A DNA stretch of 64,000 nucleotides from Pseudohongiellaceae bacterium. GTDB lineage: Bacteria; Pseudomonadota; Gammaproteobacteria; Pseudomonadales; Pseudohongiellaceae. Of this stretch, positions 22,161 to 26,043 are shown one piece after another. The position numbers and the translations under genes are program-made. Below the pieces are notes generated by a model. That model made no database searches and was not told the DNA's origin. It saw only the letters and a program-made list of their open reading frames with translations. The stretch lies in assembly GCA_051008235.1 (NCBI GenBank), contig JBPCXV010000117.1, positions 4,197-68,196 on the forward strand, written 5' to 3'. Position 1 is the stretch's first letter. Each line of letters opens with the position of its first letter.

Positions 22161-22258
22161 GAGTTTTCGTCAAAAACTTGCATATTCAAAAAACCCCGCC
22201 AATACTGATAATGCAACAACACATTAACCTTTAACTCAAACTCAAAAGGAGTGTAATC
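22161..22258 (+). promoter_or_regulatory. Shared upstream element A, with a candidate promoter, in front of peptide gene 1
   Basis: TTGCAT (22178-22183), 17 nt, then AATACT (22201-22206), followed by TGATAATGCAACA...CATTAAC and RBS AAGGAG. It is nearly identical to the element at 22842. Confidence 0.55.
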
Positions 22259-22414
22259 ATGAGAAATCTTAATTCAACAGAAATTCAAGCAGTTAACGGC
22301 GGTAGCGCCCTTCTTTTTAATACGCCTATAGGTGCCTATATGATTGGAGAGGCTATGCTGCAGCAGAGCTACTACGACCATTGGGAGGCCTGTCACAGGG
22401 ACCCACAGTCATAG
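22259..22414 (+). CDS. Small secreted-peptide precursor with a double-glycine-type leader (51 aa; not in the ORF track)
   Basis: Manual translation gives MRNLNSTEIQAVNGG / SALLFNTPIGAYMIGEAMLQQSYYDHWEACHRDPQS, then a stop. RBS AAGGAG lies 7 nt upstream. The leader has L-12, E-8, I-7, V-4 and GG-2/-1, as in class II bacteriocin/microcin leaders. Confidence 0.6.
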   Translation: MRNLNSTEIQAVNGGSALLFNTPIGAYMIGEAMLQQSYYDHWEACHRDPQS

Positions 22415-22529
22415 CACTCAACGCCAGCCGTAACTGGCAAATCGGCGGTCTGTCAGGCCGGGTGGTCATTGTGGCTACCCAAGCCTGACGGATTGCTCTA
22501 TTTCTATGAAACTGAACGAGGAGTTCAAT

Positions 22530-22841
22530 ATGCTTTGTCCAAAATGTAACTACGGGTTGCCCAATACTTTCTTTACCAAGGTGGCAATAGATGAAGTGGT
22601 TAACTGTCCAAAATGCAGTGTTCCACTCAGAGTGGATATGGGGAAGTTCAAGCGAGACATGCTGCTTACCCTTCTAATCGGCTCAATTACAGGCGGCCCC
22701 GCCATATTCTTTTGCTTGATATTGGGTTTGGATTATGGCCACCGAACAGAAGCGTTAATAGTTGGTGTGGCAGTGTTTGTTCTTATGGTTACAAATATTA
22801 TCACTTATCTGCGCTATAAATATTCGTTTAAACTCGCATAG
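22530..22841 (+). CDS. Zinc-ribbon/2-TM membrane protein, single module (type b)
   Basis: MLCPKC-19-CPKC, then LRVD, two TM helices and the tail LRYKYSFKLA. The ATG at 22530 follows GAGGAG. The alternative ORF-track start is 22506. Confidence 0.75.
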   Translation: MLCPKCNYGLPNTFFTKVAIDEVVNCPKCSVPLRVDMGKFKRDMLLTLLIGSITGGPAIFFCLILGLDYGHRTEALIVGVAVFVLMVTNIITYLRYKYSFKLA

Positions 22842-22935
22842 AATAATTTTTGCGAAAAACTTGCATATTCAAAAAAACCGCCAATACTGATAATGCAACA
22901 CAACATTAACTTTTAACTTAATAAGGAGTTCAATC
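22842..22935 (+). promoter_or_regulatory. Shared upstream element B, with a candidate promoter, in front of peptide gene 2
   Basis: TTGCAT (22861-22866), 16 nt, then AATACT (22883-22888), followed by TGATAATGCAACACAACATTAAC and RBS AAGGAG. Confidence 0.55.
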
Positions 22936-23232
22936 ATGAGAAATCTTACTTTCAATGAAGTGCAAATAGTCAGTGGCGCCGAAAGAGGAGACGCAGCGGC
23001 CAACGGAGCTATAGTGGGTGGCGCAACGGGTGCAACCGTTGGCTTCGCTATGGGCGTGGCTGCGAATGTCTCTGGGCTTGCGTTGCTTGGTCCGGTCGGT
23101 ATCGGAATAGGTATCGGAATCGTTGCAGGTGCCGCCATCGGCTACGCTGTCTATGAATTTGCCAGCGAGCCAGACTATGGTACTGGTTATAGTAACTTTG
23201 ATTGCTATGCCAATGCTCGAGCGCGTTCATAG
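22936..23232 (+). CDS. Gly/Ala-rich class II bacteriocin/microcin-like precursor with a GA-type double-glycine leader
   Basis: Leader MRNLTFNEVQIVSGA. The core is rich in GxxxG/A repeats (GAIVGGATGATVGFAMGVAANVSGLALLGPVGIGIGIGIVAGAAIG) and ends in a Tyr/Asp-rich tail with one Cys. Confidence 0.7.
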   Translation: MRNLTFNEVQIVSGAERGDAAANGAIVGGATGATVGFAMGVAANVSGLALLGPVGIGIGIGIVAGAAIGYAVYEFASEPDYGTGYSNFDCYANARARS

Positions 23233-23256
23233 CTATTTGTACCAGCTGTAACTAGC

Positions 23257-23330
23257 AAATCGGCAGTCTGCCAGTCTGGAATGGTCATTGTGACCACCCA
23301 GATCATGGACAGACTGCCGATTTCTTATAG
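23257..23330 (+). terminator. Hairpin plus T-tract downstream of peptide gene 2
   Basis: The 14-bp perfect arms aaatcggcagtctg (23257-23270) and cagactgccgattt (23310-23323) flank a 39-nt loop containing a nested tggtca-ttg-tgacca hairpin. They are followed by tttctta. Confidence 0.55.
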
Positions 23331-23535: not shown

Positions 23536-25371
23536 ATGCGATACCCGCTAACTCTTATCCGCCCCGTCCTCACCATTCTCCTTAGTCTCACCCTCGCCGC
23601 TTGCGGCGAGAATCCGACTCAAACCGAAACCGAGCGGCTTAATCAGTGGCTGGATGCCCAGTTTGAGGAAAGTCTGGCGTTCTCGCCGCAAACTCGTAGC
23701 GTGCTGGGCGAGAAGATTGATAACGACAAGCTCAACGACCCAAGCCAGGAAGCTTATGATGCCGAGTTGCAGTGGCTGCGAGACAGCGTTGCTACCATGC
23801 GCGGTGAGTTTGACTATGATGCGCTCAGCGAAGATGGCAAGCTGTCCTGGGAGATGTGGGAGTATTCGCTCAATCAGGCCGAGGCGGTGGTGCCGTGGCG
23901 TTATCATGGCTATGTTTATGGCCGCGGTGGGCCGCAGTCCGGCCTGCCCAGCTTTATGATTAGTTTTCACGAGGTGGACACGCGCGAGGATATGGAAGCC
24001 TACATCGCCCGGTTGCGCGGGTTCAGTTATGTGTTGACCACCTTGCTTGAGCGCGTCCGCACCGCCGCCGAGCGGGGCATTCGCCAGCCGCGCTTCAACT
24101 ACGATTTTGCCACCGACGAGATTCAACGCGTCACCTCCGGCGTGCCGTTCAACACCAGCGATGACACACCCAACTCGCCAATATGGACCGATGTACAAGG
24201 CAAGATAGACGGCCTGCTAACCGCAAACGTGATTAGCAACCAGCAAGCGGAAGCATTCCGTAGCGAAGCCCGCGATATTTTGTCGGGCCCGGTGCAAACG
24301 GCCTATCAGGAGGTGCAGGCTTGGCTTGCCGCCGACCGCGAGCAAGCCAGCACCGAATCGCAGGGAGTATGGGCCCTGCCCGACGGGGATGCCTACTACG
24401 CCCATCGCCTGCAACGCATGACCACGCTGGATCTAACCGCCGACGAGATTCACCAAATCGGCCTCAGCGAAGTGGCACGGCTACGCGATGAAATGGAAAC
24501 AATAAAAGAGCAGGTGCAATTCAACGGCACCCTGCAAGAGTTTTTCACCTTCCTGCGCGAAGACGAACAGTTCTATTACCCCGACACTGACCAGGGGCGG
24601 CAAGAATACCTGGATATAAACAATCAATACCTGGACACCCTATTCACCCGCCTGCCGGAGTTTTTCGGCACCCTGCCCAAAGCCCCGTTAGAGGTGCGCC
24701 GCGTTGAAGCATTCCGCGAACAGCCCGGCGCCGCCCAGCACTATCGACAGGGCTCCCCCGATGGCTCACGCCCCGGCGTGTTCTATTCCCACATGTCGGA
24801 TATGTCCACGCTGGCCATATTCCAGATTGAGAGCATCGCCTACCACGAAGGCAACCCGGGCCACCACATGCAGATATCCATCCAGCAGGAACTCACCGAT
24901 GTGCCGCGCTTCCGCACCCAATATCGCACCACCGCCTACACCGAAGGCTGGGCGCTATATTCCGAATGGCTGGCGCAGGAAATGGGCGGCTACGAAGACC
25001 CGTATTCCCAGTTCGGCCGCCTCGCCAGCGAGATGTGGCGTGCCATCCGGCTGGTAGTAGATACCGGCATCCACACCAAGCGCTGGTCGGAACAGCAAGC
25101 CGTGCAATACTTCCTCAACAACTCCCCCGTCCCCGAAGGCGCAGTGCGCTCCGAAATACAACGCTACTTCGCCACCCCGGGCCAGGCCACCGCCTACAAG
25201 GTAGGCATGATGAATCTCCAGCAAGCACGCGCCCGAGCCGAAGCCACCCTCGGCGATGCCTTCGACATCCGCCAGTTCCACGATGTAGTACTCGGTGCCG
25301 GAGCAGTCCCCATGCCCCTCATGCACGCTCGCGTGGACCGCTGGATTGAAGAAACCAGACAAGCGAACTGA
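23536..25371 (+). CDS. DUF885-family lipoprotein (gluzincin-like putative metallopeptidase)
   Basis: Lipobox LTLAAC after a signal peptide and an HEGNPGHHMQ metal-binding-like motif near the C-terminal third. The ~610-aa length is typical of DUF885. Confidence 0.6.
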   Translation: MRYPLTLIRPVLTILLSLTLAACGENPTQTETERLNQWLDAQFEESLAFSPQTRSVLGEKIDNDKLNDPSQEAYDAELQWLRDSVATMRGEFDYDALSEDGKLSWEMWEYSLNQAEAVVPWRYHGYVYGRGGPQSGLPSFMISFHEVDTREDMEAYIARLRGFSYVLTTLLERVRTAAERGIRQPRFNYDFATDEIQRVTSGVPFNTSDDTPNSPIWTDVQGKIDGLLTANVISNQQAEAFRSEARDILSGPVQTAYQEVQAWLAADREQASTESQGVWALPDGDAYYAHRLQRMTTLDLTADEIHQIGLSEVARLRDEMETIKEQVQFNGTLQEFFTFLREDEQFYYPDTDQGRQEYLDINNQYLDTLFTRLPEFFGTLPKAPLEVRRVEAFREQPGAAQHYRQGSPDGSRPGVFYSHMSDMSTLAIFQIESIAYHEGNPGHHMQISIQQELTDVPRFRTQYRTTAYTEGWALYSEWLAQEMGGYEDPYSQFGRLASEMWRAIRLVVDTGIHTKRWSEQQAVQYFLNNSPVPEGAVRSEIQRYFATPGQATAYKVGMMNLQQARARAEATLGDAFDIRQFHDVVLGAGAVPMPLMHARVDRWIEETRQAN

Positions 25372-25380
25372 GCCAGCAAA

Positions 25381-25474
25381 ATTATTTTAGGGAAAAACTT
25401 GCATACGTGAAGAAACCGATAATACTGTTAATGCAAATAATGCATTAACTTTTTTTAACTAACGGAGGTTTATC
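25381..25474 (+). promoter_or_regulatory. Shared upstream element C, with a candidate promoter and palindrome, in front of peptide gene 3
   Basis: TTGCAT (25399-25404), 16 nt, then AATACT (25421-25426). Next comes the perfect 8-bp-arm palindrome TTAATGCA-aataa-TGCATTAA (25428-25448), then RBS GGAGG. Confidence 0.55.
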
Positions 25475-25669
25475 ATGCGTATTCTTACTATTAATGAAAC
25501 AGATCAGGTTGTCGGTGGTGTGTTCCCAACACCGTGCCCGGGGCATCCTTTCCCGAGCCCTTTCCCGGGCCCTTTCCCACGCCCTTTCCCGAGGATAACA
25601 CCACCCGGACCGGTCACGGTACCTTGGCCTGGTCCTTGCCCTACTCCTTATCGGTGGGTTAATCTTTGA
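25475..25669 (+). CDS. Proline-rich peptide precursor with a double-glycine leader
   Basis: Leader MRILTINETDQVVGG. The 49-aa core VFPTPCPGHPFPSPFPGPFPRPFPRITPPGPVTVPWPGPCPTPYRWVNL has 19 Pro, mostly alternating, and 2 Cys. Confidence 0.65.
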   Translation: MRILTINETDQVVGGVFPTPCPGHPFPSPFPGPFPRPFPRITPPGPVTVPWPGPCPTPYRWVNL

Positions 25670-25717
25670 GCTGCTTGCAGTATAGCTCAAATTGAGACCA
25701 AAGAACGTCTCTAAGCT

Positions 25718-25787
25718 GTGGCTGGCAGGACAACGGAGTTAACGCCTTCGGGCACTATCACTCCCACCCCTGTCAGCCACAACTTTT
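25718..25787 (+). terminator. Hairpin plus T-tract downstream of peptide gene 3
   Basis: The arms gtggctggcagg (25718-25729) and cctgtcagccac (25769-25780) pair over 12 bp with one G-U. The loop is 39 nt, followed by aacttttagg. Confidence 0.5.
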
Positions 25788-26043
25788 AGGTAGCTCCACT
25801 ACCGCTTCTATCAGTTCTGGCATTCAGACACCACAACTACCATCCCACCAGCCGTTGGCTATCCCCCATTGGCTGCCGAGCCTGCGGGGATATATTTATG
25901 ACGTATGCGGCACGGCCTTACCCCAACCGACCGGACTCAAAAAAGACCGACCCCTCAGGGGGGTGGATAAACCCCGCTGTTGCGTTATACTCCCGGCAGG
26001 CTATTACCAACACCACAGATAACCCCGATTTAAGGAGTCAATT

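Follow-up and report, generated by a model that had tools for sequence, protein, structure and literature searches.

The window analysed here is a 64,000-nucleotide (nt) stretch of contig JBPCXV010000117.1 from a marine Pseudohongiellaceae metagenome-assembled genome (MAG). At 22161-25790 it contains three short genes, each starting with a double-glycine (GG) leader, and next to them lies an array of genes for zinc-ribbon membrane proteins (19628-22841). The region is probably (roughly 0.65) a class II microcin-like bacteriocin locus that encodes three peptide precursors together with zinc-ribbon immunity proteins. This reading is preferred because the leaders fit the published class II microcin signal, the Gly-rich peptide family weakly matches the model of microcin MccV, and the adjacent genes agree with the working criteria for microcin immunity proteins. 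The sequence analysis shows the reading frames with their leaders, the homology of promoters and of hairpins, the conserved pairing of peptide and zinc-ribbon genes, and a predicted membrane topology; we infer that a C39-peptidase ABC exporter (PCAT) exports the peptides, that these are toxic, that the zinc-ribbon proteins give immunity, and that some transcription reads through the terminators. Array and cassettes have a GC content of 42-49% vs 58-61% in the flanking housekeeping genes.

Peptide precursors and their flanking elements

Within 22161-25790, three + strand open reading frames (ORFs) with ATG starts encode 51, 98, and 64 amino acids (aa), and all of them have a 15-residue double-glycine leader at the N-terminus, just as the sequence-only reading had described them:

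22259..22414, + strand: peptide 1 precursor, 51 aa; leader MRNLNSTEIQAVNGG and a 36-aa core (SALLF...DPQS) with one Cys
22936..23232, + strand: peptide 2 precursor, 98 aa; leader MRNLTFNEVQIVSGA and an 83-aa Gly/Ala-rich hydrophobic core
25475..25669, + strand: peptide 3 precursor, 64 aa; leader MRILTINETDQVVGG and a 49-aa Pro-rich core containing two Cys and the motif PFPRPFPR

A strict leader pattern, M[RK]xLxxxExxx[VIL]xG[GAS] at the ORF start, was applied to every possible start in six frames. Of the 3245 possible ORF starts in the window it selects exactly these three, and 30 dinucleotide-preserving shuffles yield no match. The class II microcin signal described as Motif 1 by Parker et al. 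2025, M...Rx[IL]x9G[GAS] (PMC12219008), fits all three window leaders and 3 of the 4 leaders of relatives, while the fourth fits Motif 2, the Gram-positive variant. All three window peptides are also within the class II microcin definition of a precursor of at most 150 aa with an N-terminal Motif 1 signal. The fit to Motif 1 supports these N-termini as bona fide double-glycine leaders, the type to which the sequence-only reading had assigned them.

Across the three cassettes the leader DNA is 71-80% identical and its codons vary synonymously, with Arg encoded by AGA, AGA, and CGT, Val at -4 by GTT, GTC, and GTT, and Gly at -2 by GGC, GGC, and GGT. A ribosome-binding site (RBS), GGAG or GGAGG, is located 7-8 nt 5' of each ATG. 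Because of the synonymous leader changes, the RBS spacing, and the presence of the leader in frame in other organisms (see below), the sequence argues for translation of the three small ORFs. As for gene calling, annotation pipelines reported peptides 1 and 2 as genes (peptide 1 in L001-L004, contigs of the same strain) and missed peptide 3, which is an example of how small microcin ORFs often escape gene callers.

The cores are mutually unalignable, and their similarity in pairwise comparison is at shuffle level, in agreement with the earlier remark that they have nothing in common. The 36-aa core of peptide 1 is amphipathic, and the C-termini of the three cores are ...DPQS (peptide 1), ...ARARS, and ...RWVNL. 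The idea of a diversifying payload at one locus, however, gives way to a set of distinct peptide families with a common front end for expression and export; homologues of the Gly-rich and of the Pro-rich family occur in other loci.

Regarding the flanks, the following promoter elements and hairpins were located:

22161..22258, + strand: cassette 1 upstream element; A/T-rich UP-like tract, -35 TTGCAT (22178-22183), 17-nt spacer, -10 AATACT (22201-22206), then a short inverted repeat and the RBS GGAG (22248-22251)
22842..22935, + strand: cassette 2 upstream element; -35 TTGCAT (22861-22866), 16-nt spacer, -10 AATACT (22883-22888)
25381..25474, + strand: cassette 3 upstream element; -35 TTGCAT (25399-25404), 16-nt spacer, -10 AATACT (25421-25426), RBS GGAGG
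19514..19541, + strand: promoter of the zinc-ribbon operon (M1-M3); TTGCCA, 16 nt, CATACT, with TG before the -10
21383..21406, + strand: decayed cassette promoter (fourth copy); AAAAACTTGCAA, spacer cut to 7 nt, AATACT, fused to the RBS of M4
22444..22497, + strand: compound hairpin after peptide 1; 24 bp, U-rich tail, z = -5.85
23254..23325, + strand: compound hairpin after peptide 2, followed by UUUCUUAU; z = -7.17
25717..25781, + strand: long hairpin after peptide 3; z = -5.86, position like that of the other two, sequence different

The common upstream element of about 95 bp that had been reported before each gene is indeed homologous at the three cassettes (78-87% pairwise identity vs a shuffle maximum of about 0.65), and mismatch-free copies of its core blocks AAAAACTTGCATA and AATACTGNTAATGCAA are confined to these three sites within the 64 kb. 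The promoter core, consisting of TTGxxx, N16-17, xATACT, and an A/T-rich tract upstream, is invariant across the window and the related contigs L030, L031, and L035. According to a promoter scan and alignment, the zinc-ribbon operon promoter belongs to the same type and aligns with the cassette and L031 promoters. The decayed fourth copy before M4 is the scar of a deleted peptide gene whose partner gene stayed.

A short inverted repeat follows the -10 directly on its 3' side in every cassette promoter, with a sequence that differs among loci and a constant position. In cassette 3 (25427-25449) it is a perfect 9-bp repeat, GTTAATGCA-N5-TGCATTAAC, followed by T7, and counterparts after the -10 are found at 7320-7340 of L031 and 778-800 of L030. 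This repeat could serve as an operator or as a 5' attenuator. A Fur box was considered and rejected, GATAAT beside the -10 agreeing with the 19-bp consensus at 9-10 of 19 positions when compared by eye. Exact promoter-pattern scans of the genome and metagenome contigs yielded 25 matches, all of them chance matches with no leader downstream; the exact pattern is too strict because relatives have TTGCCA or TTGAAT at the -35.

For all three post-stop hairpins no shuffle folds as stably. The sequence-only reading was right that a hairpin follows each gene and wrong about its long loop, as the supposed loop is itself a second helix within a compound stem. The hairpins of cassettes 1 and 2 are homologous to a hairpin of L030, with 6 compensatory base-pair changes. 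Only cassettes 1 and 2 have 3' flanks that can be aligned (77% identity); the flank of cassette 3 is unalignable, and its hairpin is analogous, not homologous, to the other two. We read the hairpin between peptide 1 and M5 as a likely leaky terminator or mRNA stabiliser. An Rfam search returned only a chance match to a miRNA (E = 0.74).

These flanks bring in the alternative that the small ORFs are untranslated and that the cassettes represent a dispersed promoter/terminator or small-RNA element, with the leader-like frame as a by-product. Such an element would agree with the failure of annotation pipelines to call peptide 3, with a word-index search of 5.8 billion proteins that found no homologues beyond the same organism, and with the very stable hairpins, as short transcripts would suit small RNAs too. 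It seems extremely improbable, however, given that the leader Arg, Val, and Gly are kept through synonymous substitutions, that a strong RBS precedes each ATG at 7-8 nt, that three other contigs have the leader in frame before an open frame of 62-83 codons, and that Rfam reports nothing beyond chance.

The zinc-ribbon array and related loci

The array consists of five genes with eight copies of one module, in which CPxC, 18-20 residues, and a second CPxC are followed by two hydrophobic helices. The module subtypes across the five genes are b, a-b, a-b, a-b, and b:

19628..19948, + strand: M1, 106 aa; one b-type module with a zinc ribbon and two transmembrane (TM) helices; candidate orphan immunity protein
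19979..20683, + strand: M2, 234 aa; fused a-type and b-type modules, two zinc ribbons, four TM helices
20695..21369, + strand: M3, 224 aa; fused a and b modules
21423..22160, + strand: M4, 245 aa; fused a and b modules
22530..22841, + strand: M5, 103 aa; one zinc-ribbon and 2-TM module; candidate immunity protein for peptide 1 (or 2)

Every module in the alignment has CPxC...CPxC unchanged. The AlphaFold (AF2) model of M5, with a mean predicted local distance difference test score of 78, places the zinc ribbon at residues 1-35 and the helices at 37-68 and 72-96; in the sequence, basic residues stand at both cytoplasmic ends of the helices. M5 starts 33 nt 3' of the peptide 1 hairpin with no promoter between, and since this leaves no room for a promoter of its own, peptide 1 and M5 are taken to form one transcription unit. 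The working criteria of Parker et al. 2025 for microcin immunity proteins are adjacency, a length of at most 216 aa, and transmembrane helices (PMC12219008). The zinc-ribbon genes are adjacent and have predicted TM helices, with lengths of 103-106 aa for single modules and 224-245 aa for fusions. The zinc-ribbon membrane proteins most likely confer the corresponding immunity, part of them as cognate partners and the rest as orphans.

The nearest family models stay below their thresholds. The best score against TIGR04104 is 29.4 bits vs a cutoff of 45 (M1 gives a weak match with E = 4e-4, also below the cutoff), and PF06170 (DUF983) matched only P0034, a marginal relative, with E = 0.099. Neither sequence nor fold search of the PDB with the zinc-ribbon module returned a significant match, and tblastn against a plasmid collection found none for M5 or peptide 2. 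Weak similarity of the module to PqiA/YebS (E = 0.03-0.4) was put down to zinc ribbon and TM composition.

Word-index searches with peptide 2 and the zinc-ribbon profile retrieved the same organism only: L001-L004 belong to the same strain as the window (99.9-100% identical) and therefore carry no information on variation in the population, L001 being a second assembly of that strain. An exhaustive HMMER search with the module profile added about 25 weak relatives. Three unrelated metagenomic contigs, L030, L031, and L035, which differ in GC content, have GG leaders in frame with differing cores, linked to 2-TM zinc-ribbon genes; these leaders precede open frames of 62-83 codons. The comparison proposed in the sequence-only reading, namely whether the leader is kept while the cores vary, thus came out in its favour.

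The most extensive of these loci is L030 (5 kb), where at least 7 zinc-ribbon modules are interleaved with three GG-leader peptides; behind each peptide come first a hairpin and next a zinc-ribbon gene. One peptide consists of MKSLTLNETRTVSGG and a Pro-rich core (838-1062), and the other two of MRSLT[AL]NEVQLVGGA and Gly-rich cores. On L031, a Tara Oceans scaffold, a Gly-rich ORF is followed by a zinc-ribbon gene and then by MRELTFNEVQLVSGG with a Gly-rich core. This cassette stands between a DUF885 gene, 78% identical to the window copy, and a TPR gene, which is the slot of cassette 3. On L035, MRELNINEIALVSGG with its Gly-rich core is followed by a hairpin and, at a distance of 54 nt, by a zinc-ribbon gene, with unrelated housekeeping genes on both sides. 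The Gly-rich peptides of the three contigs share 40-51% identity with peptide 2, and peptide 3 has FPRPxFPR in common with the Pro-rich peptide of L030. The pairing of peptide with zinc-ribbon gene is real and conserved. The sequence-only reading had not recognised the combination with the zinc-ribbon array as a characterised system; the link stands, but the kind of locus is recognisable and only the immunity-like family is undescribed. Overall, that reading proves mostly correct, though not complete.

Several further observations concern these relatives. In three loci, Arg-Ser or Arg-Ser-Ser forms the end of the Gly-rich peptides (window 23218-23232; L030 2976-2990 and 4543-4557; L031 7726-7740), their C-terminal regions being otherwise divergent. 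On L030 a repeat of about 200 nt lies 5' of each cassette promoter (560-720, 2420-2600, and 3750-3940) and includes a long inverted repeat, GAGGCAACTGTTCGT...ACGAACAGTTGCCTC; the window lacks such an element. On L039 (Dyadobacter sp. 22481), the gene directly behind a distant zinc-ribbon-2TM gene encodes an 87-aa Gly/Ala-zipper peptide whose N-terminus is Sec-like, not double-glycine (6001-6615), which hints that the pairing of membrane protein and Gly-rich peptide may reach beyond GG-leader systems.

Alternative readings and known systems

If the locus is microcin-like, each precursor would be transcribed from its own strong sigma-70 promoter copy (UP-like tract, TTGCAT, 16-17 nt, AATACT) and translated from a strong RBS. 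A PCAT whose gene lies outside the window, together with a membrane fusion protein and TolC that are likewise encoded elsewhere, would recognise the 15-residue leader and cut behind GG or GA, and cleavage would release a 36-aa amphipathic, an 83-aa Gly/Ala-rich membrane-active, and a 49-aa Pro-rich peptide. The hairpin would either terminate transcription leakily or stabilise the mRNA, leading to abundant peptide mRNA and lower read-through into the next gene. Proteins with an N-terminal cytoplasmic CPxC-N18-20-CPxC zinc ribbon and a two-helix TM hairpin would protect the producer at the inner membrane, and the surplus modules, including the one left by a deleted cassette, would be orphan immunity genes. 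The repertoire may turn over by duplication, deletion, and recombination within the common promoter/leader and hairpin flanks.

Several results weigh against such a locus. Among window ORFs of at least 150 aa, to which the Pfam scans of the 64 kb were applied, there is no PCAT, HlyD-type membrane fusion protein, or TolC, and none is present on L030, L031, or L035 either. The absent exporter is the main weakness of the microcin reading. For about 82% of the Escherichia coli matches of Cole et al., the assembly from which the match came contained a PCAT; because of these figures its absence from 64 kb is not counted as evidence against the model. A 711-aa ORF in the low-GC island at 32.8-41.1 kb, considered as a PCAT by its size, belongs to a type I restriction-modification system with DarTG. 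In the search of the precursors against bacteriocin leader models, which the sequence-only reading had proposed as a check, TIGR01847 and the NCBIfam leader models gave no match and no curated bacteriocin model reached its threshold. Peptide 2 scores 11.5 bits against PF17508 (MccV), with a cutoff of 27 and E = 0.48, and its BLASTP comparison with an MccV sequence gives E = 0.3. As for the Gly-rich family, it has sub-threshold matches to PF17508 for 5 of 5 members (best E = 0.0028) and to PF10439 (Bacteriocin_IIc) for 2 of 5 (best E = 0.0019). Further unfavourable points are that no zinc-ribbon gene lies directly downstream of peptides 2 and 3, that the modules cluster by genome and not by partner peptide type, and that the distant zinc-ribbon-2TM relatives L032, L036, L038, and L039 have no GG-leader neighbour. 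The association is thus a trait of one subfamily and not of the architecture as a whole. Since the modules cluster by genome, cognate pairing is not readable from phylogeny, and an attempt to match zinc-ribbon subtypes to peptide types across loci failed for the same reason.

These points also bear on an alternative in which the peptides are exported and the zinc-ribbon-2TM proteins have another task, as an export accessory or chaperone, a membrane sensor or anti-sigma-like regulator of the common promoter, or a receptor. Along with the clustering by genome and the missing module behind peptides 2 and 3, it is favoured by the inverted repeat beside each -10, which suggests a regulator acting there, and by the cytoplasmic zinc ribbon, which is not a feature of the immunity proteins named in the literature compared; a literature search for zinc ribbon, immunity protein, and bacteriocin together returned nothing relevant. 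We nevertheless regard it as unlikely: eight diversified modules for three peptides, tandem fusions, and left-behind modules form the pattern of an orphan immunity array, the order of peptide, hairpin, and module is kept in four loci, and the bare two-helix hairpin with short loops in the AF2 model suits intramembrane binding, not signalling.

Other alternatives concern the peptides themselves. GG leaders also serve peptide pheromones, and the products could be secreted quorum-sensing signals, as in Gram-positive ComC and BlpC, instead of toxins, with the identical promoters forming one regulon. This is improbable, considering that no histidine kinase or response regulator is adjacent, that cores of 36-83 aa with a Gly-zipper-like or Pro-rich composition resemble class II microcins and not short pheromones, and that the small membrane proteins alongside fit immunity.

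In another scenario the peptides are ribosomally synthesised and post-translationally modified peptide (RiPP) precursors altered before GG cleavage, whether of the lanthipeptide, NHLP/Nif11, or class IIb siderophore-microcin type. GG or GA cleavage sites are described as common to many RiPPs (PMC10885120), and the conserved Arg-Ser end of the Gly-rich family bears a vague resemblance to the Ser at the C-terminus of class IIb microcins. The scanned window ORFs and the three related contigs contain no modification enzymes, however, and the scan of the window ORFs in particular revealed no glycosyltransferase, esterase, or acyltransferase genes (the first two are missing from the related contigs as well). 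With leaders of 15 aa rather than the long NHLP/Nif11 type, and no Ser/Gly-rich C-terminal tail of the decapeptide kind, modification before cleavage appears distinctly improbable.

In comparison with known systems, the microcin-like reading places the locus closest to the class IIa microcins of Enterobacterales (MccV, MccL, and MccN) and to the class II microcin set as expanded by Cole et al. (2022) and by Parker et al. (2025); the 15-residue M-R-x-[IL]-x9-G-[GA] signal is common to them and the window locus. As in class II microcins generally, the core is predicted to be unmodified and shorter than 150 aa, a small predicted inner-membrane protein is encoded beside the peptide, one core (peptide 2) is Gly/Ala-rich and hydrophobic with weak PF17508 similarity, and several peptides per locus presumably use one exporter in common. 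In contrast to enteric class II microcins, the host is a marine Pseudohongiellaceae MAG and no PCAT or membrane fusion protein was found in the 64-kb window. The candidate immunity proteins differ from those of class II microcins in having a cytoplasmic zinc ribbon and forming an eight-module array with some fused pairs; other differences are the separate promoter copy and hairpin of each peptide, the single Pro-rich core, and the absence of a curated hidden Markov model match at threshold.

The Gram-positive multi-bacteriocin loci (pneumococcal blp and plantaricin) also combine conserved GG leaders and regulatory regions with unrelated cores, and have interleaved small membrane immunity genes (candidates in the window) and a repertoire reshuffled by recombination. 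Unlike the window locus, they include an ABC exporter and a two-component pheromone circuit, and their immunity proteins lack a zinc ribbon. The modules themselves resemble TIGR04104 (cxxc_20_cxxc) and DUF983 (PF06170), with about 100 aa, an N-terminal CxxC, some 20 residues, a second CxxC, and two hydrophobic helices, but remain sub-threshold, and the distant members examined have no GG-peptide neighbour. Peptide 3 and its L030 counterpart, with about 40% Pro and PFPRPFPR or FPRPPFPR motifs, recall by eye only the animal peptides Bac7, oncocin, and apidaecin. In contrast to animal proline-rich antimicrobial peptides, peptide 3 is bacterial, starts with a GG leader, contains Cys pairs, and is poor in cationic residues. 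A bolder and doubtful proposal is that the zinc-ribbon and two-helix proteins represent a new immunity class that needs its zinc ribbon, with arrays giving broad microcin resistance, and that at the same time the Pro-rich peptide is a bacterial counterpart of animal proline-rich antimicrobial peptides acting inside the target cell and not at its membrane.

As regards novelty, double-glycine microcin-like peptides are an already known kind, of which the window peptides are new members; the pairing with a zinc-ribbon membrane family, the eight-module array, and the Pro-rich core are new as far as the literature shows. Class II microcins are now considered widespread, well beyond Enterobacteriaceae (PMC12219008), while validated class II microcins and immunity proteins are almost entirely enteric, and the locus offers a compact example from a marine lineage. 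It combines three very different cores, one of them Pro-rich, with a candidate immunity family that has an unusual metal-binding cytoplasmic domain. The order of peptide, hairpin, and zinc-ribbon gene, conserved in four independent contigs, provides a handle for genome mining, and both the peptides and the zinc-ribbon candidates suit the existing CvaAB-based secretion and self-inhibition assays.

Other features of the window

Between 32779 and 41122, the - strand contains a low-GC (41-48%) defence island with a type I restriction-modification system, into which a DarTG pair is nested:

32779..35871, - strand: HsdR, type I restriction-modification
35883..36926, - strand: macro-domain DarG, nested between restriction-modification genes
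36940..37587, - strand: DarT ADP-ribosyltransferase, nested in the same way
37584..38990, - strand: HsdS, type I restriction-modification
38987..41122, - strand: HsdM, type I restriction-modification

Further downstream, a Fic-domain protein gene (49802-51214) adjoins that of an 859-aa TIR and AAA protein (52162-54741). The latter sits in an island of 32-36% GC, the genome having about 55%, and is probably another acquired defence gene. Proteins with HTH_17 and PIN domains, resembling a toxin-antitoxin pair, are encoded at 7118-8220 between hemC (6115-7041) and hemD (8217-9089). As for tandem repeats, a 12-nt unit that is Ala/Thr/Lys-rich in translation occupies 56143-56262 inside the anthranilate synthase gene (55420-57126), and a 13-nt unit is repeated at 1668-1748 between two ABC-transporter genes.

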